In this document: in pieces, positions 35,809-64,000 of the stretch
Layout of the letters: each line of letters begins with the position of its first letter
Position numbering within the stretch: the first letter of the stretch is position 1
From: Thermoplasmata archaeon
Lineage (GTDB): Archaea > Thermoplasmatota > Thermoplasmata > GCA-020350865
NCBI GenBank assembly: GCA_020348445.1
Contig: CP070751.1
Coordinates: forward strand, 5,092,204 to 5,156,203
Direction of reading: 5' to 3'
DNA length: 64,000 nt
Made by a program: the position numbers and the translations under genes
The notes under the pieces: model-generated
Database searches by the model: none
What the model saw: the letters and a program-made list of their open reading frames with translations, nothing else
Told to the model about the DNA's origin: nothing

Positions 35809-38800
35809 TTACCTATCGTCCTCAGGTTCTCCCATGGTGTCCCTGTGTGTGGCTGGTAAATTGCCTGCCTGTGGATCTCTTGGCCCGCCGTGTTGTAATC
35901 CCCATCGATCATCCTTCTGGTCTGCAAGGCCCAACTCGCCATCAGATTCTACAAGGGCCTGATCGGCTCCACAGGCCTCGCCCAGGGCCATGAGGAACCT
36001 AACAAGATGCGGGGATATCAATCTATCTGTCTCAGGATATCCGAACGGTGCATATGGTGCAATATAGCTGTTGAATTCTCCTATCCAGTCAAAGACCCGG
36101 TCCCCACCTGTATTGAATATCATCACATCAAGACCGCATCCACCGAAGACGAAATCCCTGTCTGCAAATTCGGGTGAATCAGGCTCGTTGTTGAGGCCAC
36201 CTTGTGAGTCATGATTGTCGTCTGCATTGATGACATCGTCACCCAATCCACCGAACATGCGATCGTTCTGGGTTCCGCCAACTATCCAGTCATGGCCGTT
36301 ATCTCCGAACATCCTGTCCTTACCGTCTAAGATCTTGGTGCCGTTACCATCAACGGCCTCGAAATTGAGGAAGAATCCAACAATCTTCGTGCGTGGATTC
36401 TCTGCATCGTAGAAGGATATCTTTCTTGTTACAGGATCGTAAGGCAGCGGTGTTGTGTTGGTTATTGGATCGCTGTTATAGAAATCAGGCAATGCTTCGG
36501 CACCCAACATTCCATCATCACCTGCTCCACCGTGCATCCAGTCATTGCCAAGACCGCCATACATGATGTCGTTTCCGCCGTATTCAAAAGCCGCAATGTC
36601 AGCGACTTTCTTGAGCCTTCCTGTGATATCAACCCAGGCACCAATAAAGGGACCAGGCAATTTGATGAACTTCTCTTTGAATGGTTTGGTTAATCCGTAA
36701 AGCGGCTCAGTCTCACCGTTTCTTGAGGTGCGGATCCTGCCATCGTCACCCATCATGCCATCCTGGCCATTTCCACCATACATCCTATCATGGCCACTCT
36801 GGCCGTAGAGATCGTCGTCCTGTCCCTCGCCAAATATGACATCGTTACCCACCATACCGTGTATGAGATCATCACTGGCCTCACCGTGAATCAGATCATC
36901 TGTTCCGATGTCGCTTGCACTTCCGCCTGGAGTGTAGTCAAGAAGCTGAATTGCCCTTGGAATGATGGTCACATTGCCGTAGTTGTCATAAGTAAATGTG
37001 AGGAAGTCACCGCTGTATTGTCCGTTTGTACCCACGATGCGGAATATATTGCCATTGTCTCCGAGTATGTAATCTGAATCCAATGCATGACCGTCATCTG
37101 ATTCATCACCTGGATCGTATCTTGCAATACGGGTTCCTGCTCCACCGAATATGGTGTCAGAATCGTCGGGTCTCAGGCTTGAATCAGTGAGACCGAACAG
37201 CTCTGAGCTTCCGCCAACTATGTCATCCTGGCCATAGTCACCATAGATAAGGTCCTTGCCGCCGTTGCCCTCCATGTAATCATCGCCGTCATCTGCATTC
37301 TCCACAGAAGGATCGGTGGCATTGATGAACTCAGAAACTGAGGCGTCACCCTGCATTAGGTCGTCCCCAAGCTCGCCGAACATGACATCCTCGTGCGGTC
37401 CCCCTGCCATGTAATCGTTGCCGTATGTGTATGGTGTGGGGCTGTCGCTGTGGTCCAAAAGTGTGGTATCGCGACCCCTGGCACCGCTTGGATTAGGCTG
37501 GTGGGTGGAAGTAACGTCTGCATCGTCATTTTCATCGTACAATGTGGTGCCCTCCAATGAACGGATGCGCGGGCTCACAGTGTCGTATCTCCTGAGAATT
37601 ATGCAATTGTCTCCTGCCATCACATCATCCTCCGAGCCTCCGTCCATGATATCGTTTAGACCTGGTCCAACATCGAGCTCATCGATTCCGCCCACGACGT
37701 TATGGCCACCGATCATGTCGTCGTCATCCTCATTGCCGAACATGTCGTCGTCGCCTTGCTGGCCCAGCATTATGTCATCGCCTTCGTTGCCGTACATCAG
37801 ATCGCCGTCACCGCCATCGGATGCGGCAGTGTATATAGCGATGAAGATGAACGTCGGAACAGGCAGGGTCGAGAGATCCAGTAACATATTGGGCTTTCTT
37901 TCCACCCTGGCATGGTCACCGAAGAGCAGGTCGTTGTGTTCGTGGCCGTACATCGTATCATCAGCAGTTCCACCGAATGCGATATCATTCTCAGAACCGC
38001 ACAGTATCATGTCACTGCCACCGTCATTGGGGAATGTGGCAATAATAAGATCCAGGGTCGAAGTATCGGGTTCTGAACTGTCAACAGATGTTAATACATA
38101 ATCGAGAAGGCCGTTGTCGCCAAGTATGATATCCATATCGGCATTTCCCTTGAGATGATCACCGTAAGCGCCGCCGAGAATTATGTCATCCTGATCGTTT
38201 CCTTCGATGGTGTCGCTGCCGCCTATTGCGGGATCAGTTGTCTTGATTTTTTCTATGAGCTCTCCTGGCTGTGTGATATTGCCATTGTCACCAAGGATTA
38301 TATCCTCCCCACCGTGACCCCAGATATCGTCACCAAATGCACCGCCTAAGATCTTATCATTATCCTCGTTACCCTCGATGGTGTCGCTGCCCCCTATACC
38401 AGGATCAGTTGTCACTATCAGATCGAGGGTGTTTGCATCGCCGTCAAAGACCATGTCCAAGAATCCGTTGTCACCTAGAATCACATCCTCGTTTAGATTG
38501 CCCCAGATTAAGTCACCCTCGGCCCCTCCAAGGATGTAGTCATCCCCGTCATTGCCTTCGATTGTATCGTTGCCGCCTATTGCCGGGTCTGTGGTCTCGA
38601 TGAGCTCTATTATCTCACCGGGCTGTGTTACCCTACCGTTGTCACCAAGTATCAGATCGTTATTTTCGTGGCCCCAAATGTAGTCCCCGTACGGGCCACC
38701 CAGTATGGTATCCTCTCCTTCATTGCCTTCGATGGTATCGATGCCACCAATGGAAGGATCTGTGGTCTCGATGAGATCCAGGGTGTCAGCGTCACCATCC

Positions 38801-41800
38801 ACGACAAAATCTAGCCTTCCGTTATCGCCGAGAATGACCTCGTTGCCCAAATTGCCCCATATGAAGTCACCAGCAGCACCACCCAGTATCTTGTCATCAT
38901 CGTCGTTTCCTTCGATGATATCGCTTCCACCTGTGGCGGGATCGGTGGTTTCTATAACTTGAATTACCTCATCTGGCATGGTGATCTTACCGTTGTCGCC
39001 GAGGATTATATCATTATCATCGTTGCCCCATATATAATCGCCGGCTGTTCCTCCCAGTATTATATCATCATCGTCCTGGCCGTAAATGGTGTCGTTGCTG
39101 CCGTATGATGGGAAAATGGTTTCGATCATGTCGATTACACCACCCGGCATCGTAAGTTCTCCGTTGTCCCCAAGTATCACGTCATCATTGTCATTCCCTT
39201 CAATGTAATCGCCTCCAGCACCGCCGAGAACGATGTCCTCGCCCTCGTCACCTCTTATGGTGTCGCCGCTGCCCAAATCAGGTTTGGTGGTATTGATCAT
39301 ATCCAGGGTCGTGGGATCACCATCACCACCGCTGCCGTTCGCAAGGTTGTATTTTAAAATGCCCTCGTCGCCAACAATGATGTCGTTGCCTGTTGCGCCG
39401 TCAAGATCGTCCCCTGCGACACCACCAATTATGACATCGCTTTCCTCGTTGCCCTCGACTGTGTCATTGCCGCCGTCTTCAGCGACGGTGTCGGTAGCCT
39501 CGATTATTACGACGATACCATTTATTAGGTCTATCCTGCCCTGGTCACCGATTATGATATCCTCCCCAGGATCACTTGATGGATCTTGATCAAGTGTATC
39601 ATCACCGTATATGATATCACCGGCGTCACCCCCTAAGATCGTGTCGTCCACTTCACCGCCTGATATTGTATCGACTCCGCCAGGAGCGGGTAAGATATTG
39701 TCCGTCGTAAGTATAAGATCTAGAGTGGACCTGTCTCCATCACCTGTATTATAGTTCAGCAAACCGCTGTCACCGAGAATGATGTCGTTATCCAAGCCTC
39801 CTATCAGGTCGTCATCGCCAACGCCGCCTAAGATAACGTCAGCATTTTCACTTCCGTTGATATAATCATCGCCGCCTGTGCTATTATCGGTGTCCGTGGT
39901 TTCGATTAAGGTGACCTCAGATGTTTTATCATCTGGAACAGGGACAAAGTCAACACGACCGTTATCGCCGATTAAGATGTCGTCTCCGTCCGCTCCCAAC
40001 TCGTCGGCATCTCCGAAGATGTCATCCTCCCCTCTACCGCCGATAGCTATATCTTCACCCTCGCCGCCATAGATGGTATCATCATCGCCTGATCCTAGAT
40101 CTGTGGATTCAAACAACTCTATGAGAGATCCGCCCATGGTATCCTGGTAATCGAAGTCGAACTCACCGTTATCTCCTATCAACTTGTCGTCACCATCACC
40201 ACCGTTCATGGTATCCTGACCAGGACCGCCCAGCAGGATATCGTCACCCACATCACCGTTCATGAAATCGTTTCCTATGGTGGTATTGCGCACTGTTTTG
40301 ATGAGGTCGTAATTCAGTGTTAGCTTGTTGGGAACCAAATAGACCTCGCCGTCGTCGCCGAACATGACATCGTTGTCGGCATTTCCCTTCACCAAATCAT
40401 GGCCCGCATTGCCGTACAACCTGTCGTTTCCACTTCCTCCATAAAGATCGTCATTACCCTCATCACCGTATGCGATGTCAGAGCCGCGATCGCCCCATAT
40501 CCAGTCGTTATTTGCACCGCCGTGGAGCTCGTCGTTTCCATCCTCGCCAAAGATCCAATCGTTACCATCACCGCCTGTTAGGTTGTCACCGGCTGCTGTG
40601 CCATATAACGGGAATCTCGTGATAGGATGACCTGTGGCATTTTCTTCGAATTCCTGTGACGTCTTATTGTAATCAAATGAGGAATCGCCCCAGATGGTAT
40701 CTGCTCCTCCTCCGCCATGGATCCAATCGGGAGCGCCTCCGCCGCTTAGGAAATCGTCACCTCCCTCACCTGAGATGTTATCGGCATCAGCGTCACCTGT
40801 TATATGATCCTGACCTCCGAAGTCAGGATTATCGGGATACATATCAGGTTTGCCGTTGCCATTTGTATCAAGGCTGAAGGAATAACTAGAAACAGTGTAC
40901 TGGAACGAGGAATCTCCCCATATCCAATCCTCACCATCCTCGCCTCGGACGATGTCTCCATTATCACCGCCTGCAAGGAAGTCATCTCCTGCTCCGCCGA
41001 AAATGATATCGGCTTGTTGACTTCCCCTGAGGGTCCAGGGCTCCCCTGACACAGCTTGAGAGGCATCACCGCTTATCACATCATCCTCAGATCCACCCTC
41101 CAGATAATCTTTGCCACCGTTGCCAATTAGTATATCCTCGCCCTTCTCGCCGTATAGATGGTCGTTTCCTGGTCCGCCGACCAGAACATCTTCACCAATA
41201 CCACCCCATAGCTCTGCAACGCCATCGCCGGCTATGAGAACATCATTGCCTGATCCCCCTACTAGTTCAGCTGTGATGGAAGACGTATCCACACCCGACA
41301 TATCGACGATATCGTTACCTTCTCCGCAATCGGCCATTACCTTTTTCACACCTGAATATTCCTGTGGACCGTAGGTCGTACCTCCCAAGGTGGCAGTCAC
41401 CTCCACAGTATCTCCTGACTTCAATTCCAATATGAATTTCTCAGAATCATCTGTTGTATGTCTGTAAAGCCGGTCCTGTGCAAACTCACCCATATTGAGG
41501 CGGAGCTCACCGCTATCCTCGTCGACCTTTGCAAGAATTGGATCCTTTGGACATGTGTAGCTGAATTCAATCAAAGGCAGCGAAGGTCCAAAGTACCATG
41601 TTTTCTCCCACAGACCCCAGAGTGCCTCAACAAAGGCGAAAAGACGCGCCTCAACCTTTCCACTAACATCGAAGATACAGATCAATCCCAGCGGGAACGA
41701 AAGCTGCTTGATTCCATTGAGTATGTTGCCCCAGATCTCCTCAATCCTCACCTTGCCGTCTCCGTCTGGATCATTTAAGTTGAAATCGATTGTAGCGTAA

Positions 41801-44800
41801 ATTCCGCCGCCAACACCAGCCTTTGCTACCACGAGGTTCAGAACTGCAGCACCACTGATACCACCATAGATAGTGACCTCTGGAATATCGGCGCCGGTAT
41901 CCAAATCTAAATCTCCCACATAAAAGCCTTTGAGCAGATCAAGTGGGTGCTTGAATCCTCCTGCTGCAAATTCCTGAAGTCCGTATGTGTCGTAGCCAAA
42001 GGACAGGTCGATTATGACCCCCAACGAGCCTGTGATTTCAGCACCCAGCCCGTCCCAAATTGGGAAGTACTGGCTGTACGTGAAATCAAATATGAACTTG
42101 GGCATGTCATAGACCACGATGTCAGCAGGCCTACCCAGTAACAGGCCAAATATCTGTCCCGGATCTTCAAATATCGGGAAGCTCCAACCTCCTCCTTCCT
42201 TTGTTGTACTGCTTGCAAAGGACTTGGTTGCAGGCTTAGCACTGCTTCCATCAAGTGCACTTCCAAGTGAGGAATCGAAATCGAAGTTGGAAAGTGCGCT
42301 GCTGAGTTCCTCAAAGCCCGCACCCAGGGGCAGGGATTGACTGGAGGGAGTATTTCTGATTTCATCAAATACACCTTCATCTGTTAGATCGGGAGCATCT
42401 CCATCATCCCCGCCTAAGCTGAAGCTGCCAAAGACAATGACGATATCACCTGCGTCTGTTGGAATGGAATTTATGAACGTGATGAGATCTGCCAATGCAT
42501 AAATGAAAGCTGGATCCACAACACCGAACATCCCTGCTATGTCGATTAACGTGATGGTCTGTCCCGCCAAATCGGATATAACTGGAATCCTGGAAGTAAG
42601 AATGTCCACAAGAGGCTGCAGTGGTTCTGTTATCTGCTGTATCTCTTCGACAATGGGACCAAGAAAGTCCGAGAAGAACGAGCCGAGATTGAGTCCCACA
42701 TTGGTGAAGTTGATCCACGGATTAGATGGATGCCTATCAAATGGGCTGGATGCAGAATTGTTGACACCATCTCCAAGACCCCATCTCAAGTAGAATCCTG
42801 CCTCGATGGATGGCCACTTGCCTCCGCCTACAATTCCCAATCTGAGGTCAAGATCCAGGTCGGCCTGAACTCCCCAGGAGAAATCGAAATCCATGGATGG
42901 TATCTCGCCAAAGGACAGCCTGTCATCATCGCCACCGCCCTCGACGTCCACACTGAACCATCCATACAGGCTCTCCTTGTCAGGATTTTCCTGGGTTACA
43001 TCCAGGTTCTCTACGTCCAGCTGCAAAAACAGCAACTTGCCTGTGAGATGATCCATTAGTGTCACACCGAGGCCTATATCAATTATGCTGGTGAGGTATT
43101 TAGAGCCAGTATGTGGATAAACTGTTGTACCATTGAATTCATCTGTAAATTCGTCCCAGGGTGTGGTATCAAAATAGAATCCGTCATCAAGGCTTATTCC
43201 AAAGACCAATAGGAAGTTCCAGGTGAATGCTATCTCTATCCCGCCGTCCATATCAAGGCCTAGTCCTGGTAGGCCGAAATCGATCTCGGGGGTTTCCCAG
43301 GAGTAGCGGTCTCCCAGCCAAAGATTGAACTGTAATTCACTCCAATCATCAGCTAGATAGTACTGGACATCGCGGAAAGTGAGCCCGCCGTCAGTGCTGT
43401 TCCAGTTTTCATCCAGTTGCAGTATATCAAGTCCTGGGGGCCCCAGCGCATTGAAGATCGCCTCCCGAACTAGATCAATTGCCTTTTGTGGTGCATTTTC
43501 GATGAAATCCCGAAGCCATGGAATAACACTGTCGCGGACATCCTCTATGAATTCGGCTCCATCTGAAAGACTGTCCCCAATAAGGGGCAGGTCGATTTCG
43601 CCAAATTCCCCTGCCAGTATATCTTCCAAGATAGCAAGGAGCATGTCCAGGCCTTCAACCACCAGAAGTAGCATTTCTATGAGGTTTAGATCGTCTAAGT
43701 CAGGAAGCGCAGCCGTGAAATTGGGTGCTGAGTTCAGACTTGCATCCACCTTGATGTCGAATGGATCGCTCGTGCCCACCTCCATTGAAATATTGACATT
43801 GAAATCCAGATTGCCGATGAAGTTGGACGCTGTCGGGAAATAGCATGGTAAAATGGCTCCTATTCCGGCAGATAGATTTGCCTTGAGGTTGTAAGCAGAC
43901 AGGTTAAAGAGCTCAATCTTGTCTCCGTCGGTTGATGGATTTGGATCATCGAAGGCTGTGAGTATTAAGTACGCAGGATTCGTGTTGCTGGGATTTCCAT
44001 CCTCATTGAAAACGGCATGACCGCCAGTTACGAATAAGCCAAATGGCCCCAAGGATGCTATGAAATTAACGTTGGAAGCGTTTGCGTAACCCTCGAGTCT
44101 TATTTCTGTGTTATCAAAAATATATACTGCAAAGTTCGAAAGATTAATTCCCATACCCAGTTCAACCTCAACCGAGAATTCAGCCTCAAGACCTGCTGCT
44201 CCGCTGAGATTAGCAAGACTCTGAAGGCTGGGGGGTAGGGATAGACCCAGTAGATCCAATAGGTCGATCTGTACTGGTAATGATGCACTGTAGCTCGTGT
44301 CCCAAGTGATGTTGAAGCGCAAAATTGTACTGCTTTTAAATATGGAAAGGATAACACTCTCTTCATCATCGGTTGGTATTCCCAGAACCTCTTTAAGAAG
44401 AGTTAGGAGCTCCTGAGCAATGGAGGCATCCTCACTTGACAGCTCCTCAATAGCCAATAAAAACGGCTCAATAAAGTTCAGGGTCTCGTTCAGCGTGACG
44501 CCCAGAATAGGTATGGGTTCATCATAGAAATCGTACTTGCTGAAGTTAATAAGGAGATTGTAGATGCTTCGAAGCGCAGTTAAAACTGAACTGAAGTTCA
44601 AATCATCGAAGCCGTCGGCAATGGCCCCCATATCCAATGCCGTAACATCCAGGGTTGACATATTCGTGAAATCCTCCAGAACGATAACGATCCTTGGATT
44701 ACCCAACAACTCATTGGCAAGGCCTTGTATAGCATCAGGCAATTGAATGGAAATGTTGGAGAGTGTAAGATTCCCGTTGCCTGAGATATCGACATTTACC

Positions 44801-56080: not shown

Positions 56081-57787
56081 TTGACTCGTTTCGTAGATTA
56101 TTTAAAATCATATTACAGGGTTTGTCGTTTGGAGTATTTACCAGGTGAAGTTCCAGCCATATTTACGGTGCTATTTCTTGGTTCTGTGTCGATATCAAGA
56201 TTTTTTGAACTGCCAGTTGTAGAGGCACTTGTGGCGTTTGTTCTCCTTTACCTCTCTGGATTTATAATAAACGCCCTGGCAGACAAGGAGATCGATAAAA
56301 AATACGATACCTTCAAAACCAGCATACCAAAATCTGTGGAGTTGCTTGGCGAGAAAACCCTCTGGGCCATGATTATCGGCCATGTTGTGGTTGCCATAGT
56401 ACTGGCCTTTCATATTTCAATTATGATGAGCAGCATCTGGCCTATTGCACTGGTTTTGATAGGCGTCTTCTTTGGCCTTGGATACTCTGTTCGGCCCTTT
56501 CATTTCAAGGTCAGGGGTGTTTGGCATGCCATAGCCTTGGGCTCTTCGGCTTTCTTCCTACCCTTCGTATTTCTCATGTTCGTTGTCGCAGAGGGGATCA
56601 CAATCCCCCTCTTCATTTTCATAATAGGCTTTTGCTTTATTCACTATGGAATGGAATTCGGCAACCAGGCCATTGATTATGTGGAGGACAAGGCCTCCAA
56701 CGTACAGACACCACCTGTGAGATGGGGCATGATTCCCTCCATCCAGATCGCCTTATTCTGCGTTGTCATAGGAATAGTGGTAGAGGCATCAAGTCTATAC
56801 TTCATCCTCCTTGCCAAGGGGAGCTTCACATTTGTGCATCCGTTTTTAACAACCGAGGTAGTTTATGCGGGACTTTTGGCGATAATTGCAGCTGGCTACT
56901 ACATACCCACAAAGGGACTATGGCGGATGTTGACAACATTGAAAGAGTCCGAGACTGTGGAGAAGGGAATGCCAACCCTTAAGAGGATATGCAATTATGC
57001 AAAGTGGCAGACCAGCGGTATCCTTGGTGTCACTGTTGTTAGCGCAATTCTATTTTTAGGTGTGGTTTTGGGACCTGTTAGCACGCTCTCTCCGGAGGAC
57101 ACTGGGGGTCCAGACATTATTGAAGGTAATCTGAAAATCGCCTCTAACCCTGAGGTGGAGTTCTTCGAGGATAATGAGGGTTGGCATGCCAATGTCAACA
57201 TTTCTGTGCTCAACGATGATAATCTTAGAGAGAAGAGGACCCTTATGATCGAAGTAGAATCCTGGTTAGCGAATATCCCTAGGTGGGCGGAATGGAAGAT
57301 TTTGGAAGAGGATCTGATGCCAAATCAATATTGGAATGTTAGTATAACGATAAAGGCACACGAGGAGGATGACACAACTTTAAAAATATATATCAAACAA
57401 TATAATAACAATATTAAGGATTTCGTGCAGGTGGGCAATCCATGGGTTGTGCCAAGTCAGAAGGACCTATATATCTATGATGCTTACGCCAAAGAATTTG
57501 AAGATACACTTCACAATAAAAAGGCCAATGTTACTGTAACAGTGTTTAATCATGGAGATATGAGATCCATAGGCAGCCTGAAAGTGGAGGTATGGTATTA
57601 TTACCTAGGGTATTCAAGTTATGGAAGTAAAGAAAATGAGTACGCTATTGGTTCAAATAAGAATTGGCAACCCACAATCACGTTAAATGCCCTCCAATTA
57701 GATGATATCAACAAGCCATTCTTTGTAGTATACCTTATCTATAATGAGGCTTACGTAGATGAATATAAATTCTCCGGCTATGACTAG
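56081..57787 (+). CDS. UbiA-family prenyltransferase fused to C-terminal soluble Ig/CARDB-like domains
   Basis: First Asp-rich motif NALADKEID and second NQAIDYVED, about 8-9 TM segments, then ~230 aa with two ANV.(I/V)SV.N..D.R beta units. Confidence 0.82.
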   Translation: MTRFVDYLKSYYRVCRLEYLPGEVPAIFTVLFLGSVSISRFFELPVVEALVAFVLLYLSGFIINALADKEIDKKYDTFKTSIPKSVELLGEKTLWAMIIGHVVVAIVLAFHISIMMSSIWPIALVLIGVFFGLGYSVRPFHFKVRGVWHAIALGSSAFFLPFVFLMFVVAEGITIPLFIFIIGFCFIHYGMEFGNQAIDYVEDKASNVQTPPVRWGMIPSIQIALFCVVIGIVVEASSLYFILLAKGSFTFVHPFLTTEVVYAGLLAIIAAGYYIPTKGLWRMLTTLKESETVEKGMPTLKRICNYAKWQTSGILGVTVVSAILFLGVVLGPVSTLSPEDTGGPDIIEGNLKIASNPEVEFFEDNEGWHANVNISVLNDDNLREKRTLMIEVESWLANIPRWAEWKILEEDLMPNQYWNVSITIKAHEEDDTTLKIYIKQYNNNIKDFVQVGNPWVVPSQKDLYIYDAYAKEFEDTLHNKKANVTVTVFNHGDMRSIGSLKVEVWYYYLGYSSYGSKENEYAIGSNKNWQPTITLNALQLDDINKPFFVVYLIYNEAYVDEYKFSGYD

Positions 57788-58371: not shown

Positions 58372-59067
58372 ATGGTAGCAACTTCCAAGAAATCAAGAAA
58401 AGAGGAGTATATTTCTGATGCCAATCTGCAAGCCAAATCTCGCAATTGGCTTTCTGATATCAGATATTATTCATATGGTATCGACGATTGGAAGTACGTT
58501 CCAACATCCTCGGCATTAATTGTTATGGATATGCAAAAGTTCTTCTTATCAGAGGAATCACATGCTTTCATCCCGGCATCAAAAGCCATTATCCCAAATG
58601 TCAGGGACCTTATAGCATCTTTCAGAAATCGCGACCTTCCTGTCATTTTTACCCGGCATTCATTAAAGAAGAATGAAGAGCCGGGCATCATGGGAAGATG
58701 GTGGGCCGATGTGATCAGGGAAGACTCCGAGCTCTCCAATATCACCAACTTGCTGACACCTCTTGATTCGGAGATCGTCATCAGAAAGACGAGGTACAGC
58801 GCATTTTTCGGAACAGAGCTTGAGAAAGTTCTAAAAAGGGAGAAAGTAGAGAATATCGTTGTGACTGGTGTGATGACCCATCTTTGCTGCGAAACAACGG
58901 CCCGGGAGGCGTTCATGAAGGACTTCGAGGTGTTCTTTGTTGTGGACGCAACAGCCACGCAGAATGAAGAACTGCATCTCTCCACATTGAGGACGCTTTC
59001 TGATGGTTTTGCAGTTCCTGTCACGACCAAGGAGATATTAAAAGAAATAGAGGAGGGGAAAACATGA
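58372..59067 (+). CDS. Isochorismatase-family cysteine hydrolase
   Basis: Asp-Lys-Cys triad motifs LIVMDMQ, IRKTRYSAF and GVMTHLCCETTAR. Confidence 0.92.
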   Translation: MVATSKKSRKEEYISDANLQAKSRNWLSDIRYYSYGIDDWKYVPTSSALIVMDMQKFFLSEESHAFIPASKAIIPNVRDLIASFRNRDLPVIFTRHSLKKNEEPGIMGRWWADVIREDSELSNITNLLTPLDSEIVIRKTRYSAFFGTELEKVLKREKVENIVVTGVMTHLCCETTAREAFMKDFEVFFVVDATATQNEELHLSTLRTLSDGFAVPVTTKEILKEIEEGKT

Positions 59068-59960
59068 ATGACAATGTGATAATAGGGGCAGGCCCTGCTG
59101 GAATTGCCTCTGCTATATATCTGAAGAGGGCTGGATTTGATCCTATAGTATTGGAAAAGGGAGAGGTGGGCGGACTGCTTTTGAATGCCAACCTTGTGGA
59201 AAACTACCCTGGATTTCCTGAAGGAATTTGTGGGAGAGCTCTGGTAGGGGTGTTTAGGAAACAGCTTGCTCGCCTGGGAATAGAGGTGCAAGCCAAGGAG
59301 GTATCGAGCATTTCATTAAAAGACGGACTATTTGCTCTTGATGTTGATGATGATGAAATCATATCCCGCTCATTAATAGTTGCCACTGGTACGAAACCAA
59401 AATGCCTTGGTATCCAGGGTGAATCCACTCTGTTGGGAAAGAAACTATTTTATGAAATAAAGGATATTCCCGCGCTCTCATGGGAAGGCACTATTGCCAT
59501 CATCGGAGCAGGGGATGCGGCATTTGACTACGCCTTGAACCTTGCAGATGATGTGTCGCAGGTGGATATAATCATGAGAAACGATAGGCCCAAATGCCTT
59601 TCTTTGCTTTGGGAGCGGGTGAAAGAAAGCGATAATATACAGACCCATCCAAAAACAGTTCCCATTGCGTTCGAAGAGGGGGATGGAATTATCACAAAAT
59701 GCACAACCGAGGATAAGGAGATCTCATTTAGCTCAGAATACACCCTCATCGCCTGTGGAAGAGAGCCTAATCTTGATATATTTCCCAAAGATGTTGTTAA
59801 AACCTTGATCATAGAGGAGGATGGAGGAACCAATATACCAGGTCTCTTTATTGCCGGGGATGTGAGAAGGGGACGCAGAAGGCAGGCTGGAATCGCGGTG
59901 GGTGACGGCATCTTGTGTGCCATGTCGGCGATGGATTATCTAAAAGGAGAGGAGCCCTAA
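59064..59960 (+). CDS. FAD/NAD(P)-dependent oxidoreductase, thioredoxin reductase-like fold, lacking the CxxC
   Basis: IIGAGPAG, VENYPGF, IVATG, IIGAGDAA and GLFIAGD; no CxxC in the expected segment. Confidence 0.9.
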   Translation: MNDNVIIGAGPAGIASAIYLKRAGFDPIVLEKGEVGGLLLNANLVENYPGFPEGICGRALVGVFRKQLARLGIEVQAKEVSSISLKDGLFALDVDDDEIISRSLIVATGTKPKCLGIQGESTLLGKKLFYEIKDIPALSWEGTIAIIGAGDAAFDYALNLADDVSQVDIIMRNDRPKCLSLLWERVKESDNIQTHPKTVPIAFEEGDGIITKCTTEDKEISFSSEYTLIACGREPNLDIFPKDVVKTLIIEEDGGTNIPGLFIAGDVRRGRRRQAGIAVGDGILCAMSAMDYLKGEEP

Positions 59961-60919
59961 TGAGGATCCTGGATGTCTTTGGAAAGGAGGATCTGGCAAA
60001 GGTATATGTTGCTTCTATGCGGGATAATGATAAATACATGGTCGAGTTCGTGGAATCCACCCAACCTCCGATTCCCAGGGACAAAAAATGGGTTTTAATC
60101 GTGTCTTCGCTCTTCGGCTGCCCTGTTGGCTGCAGGATGTGCGATGCGGGAGGTAAGTTCTTTGGGAAGCTCAAAACAGACGAAATATTGCAGCAGATCG
60201 ATTATCTCGTGAAGAAAAGATATCCCGATGGTAAAATTCCTGTTCCCAAATTCAAAATCCAGTTCGCGAGAATGGGAGAGCCCTCCATGAATCCCAATGT
60301 TCTTGATGCCCTTGCAAGGCTACCTGAGGTTTATGATGCACCAGGACTTCTTCCATCTCTTTCCACAGTTGCACCTGCAAACGGTAAAGATTTCTTTGAG
60401 GGATTGATCAAAATCAAGGACAAGTACTACTCGAACGGAAGGTTTCAATTGCAGTTCTCTATACACTCCACCAACTCCGCTTCTAGGGATGAGCTCATCC
60501 CCATTAAGAAATGGAGCTTCGAGGAAATCGCAGAATACGGGGCAAGGTTCCACAAGGATGGGGACAAGAAGATAACACTCAATTTCGCCACAGCCAAAGG
60601 TTACGAGGTAGACCCTGAGAATGTGCGGGAGTATTTTGATCCTAATCTGTTTTTAATAAAACTGACCCCCTTAAATCCAACTGTGAGGGTCAAGGAGAGT
60701 AGACTCGAGTCCGCAATCGATCCCTATGATTCCAACTCAGCAGCCAAGATCGTGGAGGATTTCAAGTCCCATGGTTTTGATGTGATTCTGAGTATCGGTG
60801 AGGTGGAGGAGAACAAGATAGGTTCAAACTGCGGGCAGTACGTGACCCAATACAGAACCACCCAAACATCAATAAAAGAGGGCTATGAAACCCATAAGTA
60901 TCAGATGGGATCAAATTAA
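59915..60919 (+). CDS. RlmN/Cfr-like radical SAM protein; true start probably ATG 59960 (TAATG overlap)
   Basis: VSSLFGCPVGCRMC (CxxxCxxC), RMGEP, FSIHS...RDELIP, KLTPLNP and NCGQ. Confidence 0.9.
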   Translation: MCHVGDGLSKRRGALMRILDVFGKEDLAKVYVASMRDNDKYMVEFVESTQPPIPRDKKWVLIVSSLFGCPVGCRMCDAGGKFFGKLKTDEILQQIDYLVKKRYPDGKIPVPKFKIQFARMGEPSMNPNVLDALARLPEVYDAPGLLPSLSTVAPANGKDFFEGLIKIKDKYYSNGRFQLQFSIHSTNSASRDELIPIKKWSFEEIAEYGARFHKDGDKKITLNFATAKGYEVDPENVREYFDPNLFLIKLTPLNPTVRVKESRLESAIDPYDSNSAAKIVEDFKSHGFDVILSIGEVEENKIGSNCGQYVTQYRTTQTSIKEGYETHKYQMGSN

Positions 60920-61586: not shown

Positions 61587-62804
61587 ATGAGGAGGGCTTC
61601 GAAGACAAAAATACTCCTGCTTTCAGCGATACTTGTTCTAATCCTTGTAGCAGATCCCTTTTCCTTGAAATCAATATCATTTCTTCAAACAGCTTCTGCG
61701 CCCACAAGGGAATATGAAGATAATATCACCATCCCAGCAAACGACCTCCGAGCCTTGGATTTGGTGTTCGTGGAAGGCGATGAACTGGAGCTTATTTTCT
61801 CGATACAGGTGAAACAAGATCTTCCCGTCGATATCTGGTTTGTGGATTATGCGAATTATGTAAGGCTTGTTGATGGTAACGAGTTTTTATATTTCATTGA
61901 CGGCTCAGGGAAGAACCTTACCAAGGCAACTAAGGTCGTCTCACTTACACAACATGGGACCTATGAACTGGTATTTGTCAATTCTAATGCTGAGGCAGTG
62001 GAGGTCTACCTTACCTACGATATAAATATCTATCCTGTTAAAAGCGACCCACCGCCAATAACCGGTAAAGTCGTGGACGAAGAAGGAGCCCCAATAGAAG
62101 GTGCGATTGTACAATTAATTAACGACAATGACATTACTCTTTTAACTTATACAACCAACTCGACAGGCGATTTTAAATTTTTTAATATATCTGTTGGCAC
62201 CTATAGTCTAATTATATCTGCGGACGGATTCGAAAAGAACAATAAAACATCTGCAACTATTTCATCGGATGCTCCTATAGTAGATCTAGGTAGTATTAAG
62301 CTTGTTGCCATCCCTGAGCCTTCTGAGCCTTCTGAACCTTCTGAGCCGTCTGATGATGAGACTCCGTTTTGGCAATCTTCCATGTTCATGCTCCCTCTTG
62401 GAATTATACTGGGAATTATCATTGGCCTGGTACTCTCTTTTGCGCTGCGTGGATCAAAGGAGGAGCCCAAGGCTGCTGTGCAACCTGCACGGGAAGTGCG
62501 TGTCCGAAAAGCTGTGAAGAAAACACCCAAAGCTCCTGCCAAAGCACCCACAAAGAGGGTAAGGGTCCGCAAGGCCAAGAAAAAAGTACCAGAGGCTACA
62601 AAGGAGGCTTCTGCAGATGAGGTTGAAGAGCCAGAACTTGAGGAGGAAGAAGAGTCGGATGCTTTGAAAGAATCAAAAGCCATGGAAGAAGAAGCTACTG
62701 CACCAAAAAAGGATACTCCTCAACCTAAATTCTGTGGTAACTGCGGATGGCCTGTAGAGACACCTTTTTGTCCTTCTTGCGGGAAAAAGGTTGGGACACC
62801 TTAG
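61587..62804 (+). CDS. Single-pass membrane protein: signal, beta domain, carboxypeptidase-regulatory-like domain, PSE linker, TM, charged tail, C-terminal Zn ribbon
   Basis: ITGKVVDEEGAPIEGAIV...TNSTGDF.F...GTYSL is followed by (PSE)n, a TM and finally FCGNCG...FCPSCG. Confidence 0.82.
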   Translation: MRRASKTKILLLSAILVLILVADPFSLKSISFLQTASAPTREYEDNITIPANDLRALDLVFVEGDELELIFSIQVKQDLPVDIWFVDYANYVRLVDGNEFLYFIDGSGKNLTKATKVVSLTQHGTYELVFVNSNAEAVEVYLTYDINIYPVKSDPPPITGKVVDEEGAPIEGAIVQLINDNDITLLTYTTNSTGDFKFFNISVGTYSLIISADGFEKNNKTSATISSDAPIVDLGSIKLVAIPEPSEPSEPSEPSDDETPFWQSSMFMLPLGIILGIIIGLVLSFALRGSKEEPKAAVQPAREVRVRKAVKKTPKAPAKAPTKRVRVRKAKKKVPEATKEASADEVEEPELEEEEESDALKESKAMEEEATAPKKDTPQPKFCGNCGWPVETPFCPSCGKKVGTP

Positions 62805-63111: not shown

Positions 63112-64000
63112 TTAATCTGTGGCCAATACAGTTATAATCCCAGTACTTGACTTGGCTTTTAGATCTCCATCGGCCTCATCAACATAAATTACAAAACCCG
63201 TTGATGGATTAGCAGGTGCAGGTATAGGGTCGAGATTAATTGTCCCGTTTACATGAAGTGTATTCTCTGGGCTCACGGTCCCAATGCCGACATTGCCGCC
63301 CATGATCGCCATTGTGTTGGCTTGTGTTATCGTCCACCCATTGATATTATAGGCTAAACCAATCCCGAAACTGTAATCTCCTTCAGCAGTAATCCTGCTT
63401 CCCATCGTGGTTGAATAATTCCCGTTGGCGTTTGTTTGATAACCCATCGCGGTTGAACTCCGCCCGTTGGCGTCTGTACCACGTCCCATCGCGGTTGAAA
63501 ATTCTCCGCGGGCGACTGTACTATCCCCCATCGCGGTTGAAGATTCTCCGTAGGCGAATGTACTAGCCCCCATCGCAGTTGAACTCCACGCAAGAGCGTG
63601 TGTACTATACCCCATCGCGATTGAATAATCCCCGCTGGCGTTTGTCATTAACCCCATCGCGGTTGAACCACTTCCGTAGGCGACTGTCCAAATCCCCATC
63701 GAGGTTGACCACCACCCGCTGGCGGTTGTGTTGTATCCCATTGCTATCGCATGATCCCCAGTAGCTAAATTATTGCTGGAACCTATGGTTGCTGCTCCAC
63801 CAACACCAAAGAACTCAGAACCGACATCCACATCCAATTTCACCTCTGGACTTATCGTCCCAATACCGATGTTCCCTCCAGTTTCGTAGATTACTGAATT
63901 GCCTAGGGTATTGCCAGCTGTGAACTTGGGAATATAATTAGCAGTGCCACTGCCACCTATTCCACCTGTAACAGTTAAATCATATTCTGTACCACCATCA
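63112..64000 (-). CDS. YadA-head-like (14-aa AMG repeat) adhesin or fibre protein, C-terminal part; runs off the right edge
   Basis: The frame is open to the edge (DGGTEYDLTVTGGIGGSGTANYIPKF...GNIGIGTISP). About 9 repeats of AMG..T.A.G..ST are flanked by GNVGIGT motifs. Confidence 0.85.
   Translation of the reverse strand, partial: DGGTEYDLTVTGGIGGSGTANYIPKFTAGNTLGNSVIYETGGNIGIGTISPEVKLDVDVGSEFFGVGGAATIGSSNNLATGDHAIAMGYNTTASGWWSTSMGIWTVAYGSGSTAMGLMTNASGDYSIAMGYSTHALAWSSTAMGASTFAYGESSTAMGDSTVARGEFSTAMGRGTDANGRSSTAMGYQTNANGNYSTTMGSRITAEGDYSFGIGLAYNINGWTITQANTMAIMGGNVGIGTVSPENTLHVNGTINLDPIPAPANPSTGFVIYVDEADGDLKAKSSTGIITVLATD

Follow-up and report, generated by a model that had tools for sequence, protein, structure and literature searches.

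An RlmN-like radical SAM family that keeps the methyl-carrier cysteine but not the second one, found in a horizontally spread three-gene cassette with a possible link to folate synthesis

Class A radical S-adenosylmethionine (SAM) methylases are defined by two cysteines. In RlmN, the C2-methyl synthase of A2503 in 23S rRNA and of A37 in tRNA (PDB 3RFA, 5HR7), one of these cysteines (C355), turned into a thiolate by the strictly conserved E105, accepts the methyl group from SAM; the C355 methylene radical adds to the adenine carbon, the other cysteine (C118) is the base triggering release, and M176 is thought to stabilise the resulting cysteine radical, which must take up one electron of still unidentified origin (PMC9692996). 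The window analysed in this work (a stretch of 64,000 nucleotides from a Thermoplasmata archaeon; GenBank assembly GCA_020348445.1, contig CP070751.1, positions 5,092,204 to 5,156,203 of the forward strand) encodes a protein, P0001, which resembles RlmN and also Cfr, the A2503 C8-methylase (PDB 9P0P), and which keeps the methyl-carrier cysteine without having the second one. P0001 forms part of a three-gene module that is self-contained and has spread horizontally; it is the radical SAM subunit, and the two other genes code for a cysteine hydrolase and a flavoprotein. Its gene and the codons on which the comparison with RlmN depends are the following (positions counted from the first letter of the window):

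59960..60919, plus strand: gene 3, P0001, an RlmN/Cfr-like radical SAM core of 319 residues, last gene of the cassette
60044..60046, plus strand: Glu29 (GAG) in VEFVES, aligned with RlmN E105 by hhalign; kept in 199/199 family members
60098..60100, plus strand: Ile47 (ATC), at the position of RlmN C118 and Cfr C105, from the DNA reading and the alignments
60119..60142, plus strand: codons of C54, C58 and C61 (CX3CX2C), ligands of the radical SAM [4Fe-4S] cluster, from the translation; kept in 199/199 members
60272..60274, plus strand: Met105 in ARMGEP, aligned by hhalign with M176 in MGMGEP of RlmN; methionine in 194/199 members
60830..60832, plus strand: Cys291 (TGC) in GSNCGQ, equivalent to RlmN C355 and Cfr C338 in the alignments; kept in 199/199 members

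The original prediction, made on the letters alone, had read the motifs LIVSSLFGC, RMGEP and SNCGQY in this protein, and had placed an isoleucine at the C118 position and a retained methyl-carrier cysteine in SNCGQY. Both placements are borne out. Codon 47 falls in the same register in three independent comparisons: in the phmmer alignment with E. coli RlmN (3rf9), where 'kkwvlivsslfgC' pairs with 'DRATLCVSSQVGC', I47 is opposite C118; in the alignment of the family profile with Cfr, I47 is opposite C105 and GSNCGQ pairs with AACGQL (C338/C355); and in hhalign comparisons with four true RlmNs (from bacteria that also carry the cassette radical SAM gene), I47 takes the place equivalent to C118, with E29, M105 and C291 matching E105, M176 and C355, respectively, and the VEFVES context of Glu29 pairing with IETV or VETV of RlmN.

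The missing C118-type cysteine is a trait of the whole family, and not a peculiarity of one sequence. Among 199 family members, position 47 is occupied by isoleucine (174), leucine (13), methionine (9) or valine (3), and by cysteine in none; C54, C58, C61 and C291 are 100% conserved, and cysteine reaches at most 23% in every other column. Additionally, a MAFFT alignment of 69 diverse relatives with four true RlmNs has cysteine in the C118 column in the true RlmNs only. Another cysteine at the C118 position in three dimensions, which the original prediction had named as a refutation, is excluded: the translation of P0001 holds four cysteines in total (C54, C58, C61 and C291), all of them accounted for, so that no further cysteine is able to fill the C118 site in three dimensions. 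The methyl-carrier apparatus (E29, M105 and C291), on the other hand, looks intact in the alignments, and methylation of C291 is predicted only. Besides these shared residues, the family has invariants of its own that are without RlmN counterpart (D62, R104, Q165, N208, K234 and E283/E284). D62 directly follows the third cluster cysteine and the acidic pair E283/E284 lies 7-8 residues ahead of C291; a phage-type sister clade, described below, has a DEE motif at the site matching this pair.

P0001 scores well below the thresholds of both described enzymes, with 46.2 bits against the RlmN model TIGR00048 (cut-off 290) and 40-42 bits against the NCBIfam Cfr models (cut-offs 468-550). The match to TIGR00048 is confined to model positions 83-348, which indicates that the RlmN N-terminal domain is absent from P0001; the hhalign alignment of the family with RlmN starts at RlmN column 57, and the N-terminus of P0001 amounts to 53 residues ahead of the first cluster cysteine. 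The AlphaFold2 model of P0001 (predicted local distance difference test, pLDDT, 84.9) finds its best PDB matches in RlmN and Cfr, with template-modelling (TM) scores of 0.59-0.70, while other radical SAM enzymes reach 0.51 or less. The loop of residues 281-290, just before C291, has a pLDDT of 55, as would be expected if it were mobile like its RlmN counterpart.

True RlmN (349-419 bits) is also present in 4/5 of the carrier bacteria (carriers being the genomes that have the cassette), and a maximum-likelihood tree parts true RlmN from the 69 C118-less relatives by a branch of 3.1 substitutions per site with 100% support, the C118-less sequences forming a separate, monophyletic clade. Because of this coexistence and of this long, supported branch, P0001 is a paralogous family member and not an RlmN orthologue, and we are highly confident that the module is distinct from RlmN. 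It is probably not an RNA enzyme; the median isoelectric point (pI) is 6.0 in the family versus 6.3-9.2 in the four true RlmNs which, together with the absent N-terminal domain, gives a weak hint against an RNA substrate. There is no reason for tying the family to antibiotic resistance.

The two genes that precede P0001 in the cassette are:

58372..59067, plus strand: gene 1, an isochorismatase-fold cysteine hydrolase of 231 residues (PF00857, 156.6 bits)
59064..59960, plus strand: gene 2, a thioredoxin-reductase-like FAD/NAD(P)H flavoprotein of 298 residues without CxxC (PF07992, 107.9 bits)

The three genes overlap, the stop of gene 1 with the start of gene 2 (ATGA, 59064-59067) and the stop of gene 2, by one base, with the start of the radical SAM gene (TAATG, 59958-59962). 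The nearest solved relatives of the hydrolase are EntB, PhzD, 'isochorismate lyase' and cysteine hydrolases; its Asp-Lys-Cys triad (D53, K139 and C172) is invariant in 64 orthologues, and C173 is conserved in 95%. Codons 172-173 (58885-58890) encode a vicinal Cys-Cys pair (THLCCETT), the second cysteine replacing the valine of relatives such as RutB. The flavoprotein obtains 186 bits with TIGR01292 (cut-off 343), and its best PDB matches are thioredoxin reductases (TrxR), followed by TrxR-type FNRs. None of its 71 orthologues has a CxxC motif, and C178 is 90% conserved.

We surveyed 80 cassette loci in archaea and in about 12 bacterial phyla (Thermoplasmata-type archaea, Heimdallarchaeota, Chloroflexota, Planctomycetota, Ignavibacteria, Acetothermia, Fraserbacteria, Latescibacterota, Acidobacteriota, Thermotogota and others). 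In 79/80 loci the radical SAM gene is immediately preceded by the flavoprotein gene, and in 67/80 the hydrolase gene stands upstream of the latter (many of the remaining loci end at contig edges), with identical gene order and strand in every locus; across these loci no fourth conserved gene was found. All three pairwise gene fusions exist in nature (flavoprotein::radical SAM in P0128, P0152, P0167 and L065, radical SAM::hydrolase in P0144 and others, and hydrolase::flavoprotein in L076), from which it follows that the three proteins probably touch. In the radical SAM::hydrolase fusion clade the hydrolase cysteine is lost in 4/5 representatives, P0144 alone keeping LCVEST, and in such Cys-less fusions the hydrolase domain may be a binding module rather than a catalyst. 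The nucleophile cysteine is missing from the radical SAM::isochorismatase proteins P0156, P0157, P0162 and P0190, in some of them together with the aspartate.

Homologues of P0001 are numerous (the scored candidates include over 6000 database proteins with E<=0.001), and archaeal and bacterial members share 54-67% identity. The cassette is found in 54/251 genomes (21%) of the window's own phylum and in 2/121 Chloroflexota; this patchy occurrence, combined with the high identity across domains, points to horizontal spread. We found no riboswitch upstream of the cassette in 10 bacterial loci (139 kb) and no PADLOC match to a defence system, and the ESM Atlas clusters of the family are named simply 'radical SAM protein'. 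One copy, that of genome G037 (locus L188, G037:C190, 8513-9412 and 9551-10813), showed a radical SAM gene with an in-frame TAA in the genome search and is followed immediately by a DDE transposase gene; it could be in decay, or could have moved recently.

Occasional neighbours of the cassette suggest the folate pathway. The 'pterin-binding' neighbour is dihydropteroate synthase (DHPS, FolP), with 246-328 bits against a cut-off of 163. Its gene, folP, lies directly upstream of the hydrolase gene in five Dehalococcoidia-type loci; in an archaeal metagenome-assembled genome (L065) it is the next gene downstream of the cassette and overlaps the radical SAM gene at its end. At a distance of 68 nt from the G037 cassette there is a divergent pair made up of folC (408 bits, cut-off 163) and a FolP fusion, in L037 a folK-x-folP arrangement lies within 6 kb of it, and a PurN-like formyltransferase gene is directly downstream of the cassette in three Thermoplasmata loci. 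In all, the cassette adjoins folP, folC or folK in at least 4 independent lineages, whereas by our own estimate chance would give, for a single-copy gene, about 0.5 coincidences over about 140 loci.

The distribution of pathway genes was mapped in a sample of 251 genomes of the window's phylum, comprising 54 carriers and 197 non-carriers. DHPS is above cut-off in 232/251 of these genomes, including 49/54 carriers, and in 10/10 carrier genomes tested outside the sample. The PabB/TrpE family, which was scored with TIGR00553 (positive in 14/14 control genomes), is present in 3/54 carriers versus 109/197 non-carriers, so that at the family level the cassette and PabB/TrpE are nearly exclusive. TIGR00553 also has no match in 13/15 other carrier genomes from about 10 phyla, including the complete genome of Heimdallarchaeum aukensis; the remaining two have a fragment and a full-length, sub-threshold match, respectively. 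No TrpD was over cut-off in five carriers (G000, which is the window's own genome, G001, G003, G005 and G256), which are apparently tryptophan auxotrophs; these five likewise have no TrpE/PabB-family enzyme. The missing TrpE is explained by such auxotrophy; the missing PabB remains an unexplained gap. HPPK was found in three of three bacterial carriers tested, and chorismate synthase in 3/5 carriers tested. A second correlation test was considered for Chloroflexota, where the cassette occurs in too few genomes (2/121) to give it any power.

Gaps in folate synthesis pathways have been reviewed (PMC1971073). CT610 and NE1434, PabABC-independent synthases of para-aminobenzoate (pABA), were identified through the absence of pab genes and the clustering with fol genes (PMC4161248), and the idea that the cassette supplies pABA follows the same logic. 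A replacement of de novo preQ0 synthesis, which we also considered, was rejected, QueC being present in 249/251 genomes of the phylum sample, carriers and the window's own genome among them.

Some observations concern the relatives of the family outside the cassette. The sister clade, assigned to phrog_24834 (metagenome loci L091-L170; P0261, P0271-P0389), consists of proteins of about 340 residues with a C-terminal TCGN, encoded in co-directional, phage-like gene arrays, and Bacteroides phage Versailles has a 51% identical copy of such a protein. Within these arrays, NAMPT lies directly upstream in 4 loci, an NMNAT-like cytidylyltransferase directly downstream in 5 and an NrtR-type Nudix gene in 7, with Macro domain and RtcB genes close by; annotated phage records with relatives had no informative neighbours. 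The NAD link suggested by these neighbours was rejected for the cassette, given that the window's own genome has NadA (404 bits) and that the hydrolase is nicotinamidase-like in fold only. In P0241 (820 residues) and P0248 (586 residues) a QueT-type ECF S-component domain is fused to this kind of radical SAM domain, P0241 carrying additionally a methylthioadenosine/S-adenosylhomocysteine/5'-deoxyadenosine (MTA/SAH/5'-dA) nucleosidase domain. These QueT::radical SAM(::MTAN) proteins are distant relatives (31-32% identity) which belong to phrog_24834 together with the phage clade. A kinship with the queuine lyase QueL, which the fusions had suggested, was discarded, since the PDB profile matches of both clades are RlmN and Cfr only (E<=1).

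The explanation that we consider best, although tentatively and at somewhat less than even weight, is that of a module distinct from RlmN, which uses a cysteine chemistry without the second cysteine as base and which serves the folate branch. Since the equivalents of E105, M176 and C355 are retained, a Cys291-bound methylene radical would still be formed and would be added to an sp2 carbon of a small molecule; whether this methyl-cysteine chemistry is in fact retained is, judging from conserved residues, an evenly balanced question. Without a second thiol, release of the adduct would have to follow a different route. Another base may act in place of C118, the candidates being the family-specific invariant acids D62 and E283/E284, or the dedicated flavoprotein may deliver electrons, and this protein could in any case feed the cluster and re-reduce a thiyl radical. 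The substrate of the hydrolase would be the same metabolite, either ahead of the radical SAM step or following it. The pathway served would most likely be the folate (dihydropteroate) branch, a link which falls just short of an even balance in our judgement. Within this branch, the leading candidate would be pABA supply in anaerobes that have DHPS and are without PabABC, although as a specific role for the cassette we regard it as rather unlikely. The wider proposal, in which the cassette gives anaerobic archaea and bacteria that have folP and folC, and are without chorismate-aminating enzymes, an oxygen-independent and PabABC-independent route to pABA or to another DHPS-side folate intermediate, built on a class-A-type 'methyl synthase' free of the second cysteine, is similarly doubtful. 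The original prediction had likewise argued for a different chemistry or a non-RNA substrate. This general part is favoured by the separate C118-less clade, the absent N-terminal domain, the coexistence with RlmN and the locked partners. The specific mechanisms that it named remain proposals, and among them a permanently trapped adduct (which would make P0001 a single-turnover enzyme) is unsupported.

Several considerations weigh against the folate reading. Among about 140 loci, only about 4 independent lineages have fol genes clustered with the cassette, and most cassettes are far from folP; the window's own genome has folP at 549 kb and its cassette at 5.15 Mb. The complementary pattern with PabB/TrpE goes along with phylogeny and lifestyle (the carriers are also without TrpD), and 88 sampled genomes are without both PabB and the cassette, so that the pattern could reflect ecology and not function. 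Chorismate synthase was not found in 2/5 carriers, and with such gaps the likeness of the hydrolase to chorismate-type hydrolases may be irrelevant. On the chemical side, the addition of a one-carbon unit to an sp2 carbon, as in RlmN, is not an obvious route to pABA, and no convincing chemical route from a known precursor to pABA can be deduced for these three enzymes. Finally, E29, M105 and C291 may have been retained for another radical role, such as hydrogen-atom donation, and the literature searched contained no paper on the cassette.

The last of these possibilities amounts to a distinct explanation, which is unlikely and yet deserves serious weight: a non-methylating enzyme (lyase, isomerase or reductase) with a small molecule as its substrate. 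In spore photoproduct lyase (SPL) and in radical SAM epimerases, a cysteine serves as hydrogen-atom donor or thiyl relay. A single essential cysteine in the role of hydrogen donor has therefore precedents, although SPL is only a weak fold match in our case; Cys291 would act likewise, the flavoprotein would supply or accept electrons and the hydrolase would process the product. Such an enzyme would agree with the absence of the general base of RlmN-type turnover from the entire clade, with a dedicated redox partner that is always there, and with the fusions to QueT-type uptake and MTA/SAH/5'-dA nucleosidase domains (P0241, P0248), which point to an imported small-molecule substrate. It is less easily reconciled with the retention of the equivalents of E105 (199/199) and M176 (194/199), given their roles in methylation (PMC9692996), and with an architecture for SAM and the C-terminal loop that is entirely RlmN-like. 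The same retained residues (together with C355), and best fold and sequence matches that are solely RlmN and Cfr, would fit an RNA (or DNA) adenine C-methylase in which another residue or a partner has taken the C118 role, a possibility in favour of which one might also count that a few related loci have PheT as a neighbour and that in one phage the relatives are surrounded by tRNA genes. However, the N-terminal domain is absent and the proteins are acidic to neutral, true RlmN coexists in the bacterial carriers, RNA methylation has no use for the obligate hydrolase and flavoprotein, and the cassette is scattered in its occurrence (21% of one archaeal phylum, 2/121 Chloroflexota), all of which makes a nucleic acid methylase improbable.

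The cysteine that is missing from P0001 could also be supplied by a partner, as the original prediction had suggested for the hydrolase nucleophile. In this case the hydrolase C172/C173 or the flavoprotein C178 would replace C118, with the TrxR-like flavoprotein re-reducing the disulfide or thiyl. In the unfused cassette C172 (100%), C173 (95%) and C178 (90%) are indeed conserved, contact is probable in view of the pairwise fusions of all three proteins, and a TrxR scaffold that has no dithiol of its own would readily accommodate one supplied by a partner. The suggestion is nevertheless weakened by the loss of the hydrolase cysteine in 4/5 representatives of the fused clade, and the conservation of C172 needs no extra reason, this residue being the usual nucleophile in a D-K-C triad that is complete; we hold resolution in trans to be a rather remote prospect. 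An even smaller weight is given to a tailoring on the pterin side, in which the methyl group would go to a pterin sp2 carbon (e.g. C7 of a 6-substituted pterin), yielding a C-methylated dihydropterin for DHPS, with a radical adduct that is reduced by the flavoprotein rather than deprotonated. The fol-gene clustering applies equally here, and the reaction fits class A chemistry at an sp2 carbon beside a ring nitrogen (PMC9692996) better than pABA does. Moreover, a product that keeps its C-H bond would require no base and would make the reductase obligatory. Left unexplained are the PabB complementarity and the hydrolase, and the DHPS and FolC of the carriers are ordinary bacterial-type enzymes. 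To our knowledge, no methylated folate is known from carrier lineages.

Other genes lie around the cassette in the window. A DUF5788 gene ends 29 nt before the cassette and a gamma-carbonic-anhydrase-like gene lies downstream, neither of them being a conserved partner. Upstream of the DUF5788 gene, a gene for a UbiA-type prenyltransferase (56081-57787, plus strand) encodes about 300 additional residues behind the membrane domain; it is not conserved beside the cassette elsewhere. Further downstream, positions 61587-62804 (plus strand) encode a membrane-anchored protein in which a CarboxypepD_reg domain is combined with a (PSE)n linker, a Lys/Ala-rich tail and a zinc ribbon at the C-terminus, and an open reading frame with repeated 'S(S)TAMG' units (63112-63999, minus strand) leaves the window. 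The G+C content is about 0.50 in positions 36000-42000, compared with about 0.42-0.45 in the remaining window. In the 5.16-Mb single-contig genome to which the window belongs, the archaeal small-subunit rRNA model matches 123 nt only (G000:C1:692126-692248), and the rRNA may be masked or split.

What makes the family worth pursuing is that, with thousands of members, it keeps the methyl-carrier half of a two-cysteine machinery, is without the second thiol and is always accompanied by a flavoprotein and a hydrolase. It would reveal either that a Cys-CH2-substrate adduct can be resolved in a new way or that the RlmN scaffold has been put to a new use. Additionally, many archaea and anaerobic bacteria have DHPS and are without PabABC, and the source of their pABA is a question which the cassette makes testable; DHPS being the target of sulfonamides, an alternative pABA supply would be of practical interest.

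Among the known systems, RlmN shares with the P0001 family its fold (TM 0.62-0.70) and, in aligned positions, the CX3CX2C motif, the GEP motif, E105, M176, the C-terminal CGQ cysteine and a beta-extension before the core. The family differs from it by an identity of only about 25%, by having neither C118 nor the N-terminal helical domain, and by its obligate hydrolase and flavoprotein. Cfr, the top PDB profile match (41.9 bits), has its C105 and C338 aligned with I47 and C291 and differs from the family in the same points as RlmN. Nearest by score (115.6 bits; 32% identity and a probability of 100% in hhalign) is phrog_24834, an uncharacterised phage/gut radical SAM family which, like P0001, is without C118 and has a C-terminal CG[NQ] cysteine with an acidic EE/DEE motif before it but, unlike P0001, has an N-terminal extension, no flavoprotein or hydrolase partners, and phage-like contexts. 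On the side of function, CT610 and NE1434, whose fold is heme-oxygenase-like and PqqC-like, have no homology with the cassette and provide a functional analogy only, as proteins that fill the pABA hole in genomes with folP and without pab genes (PMC4161248).

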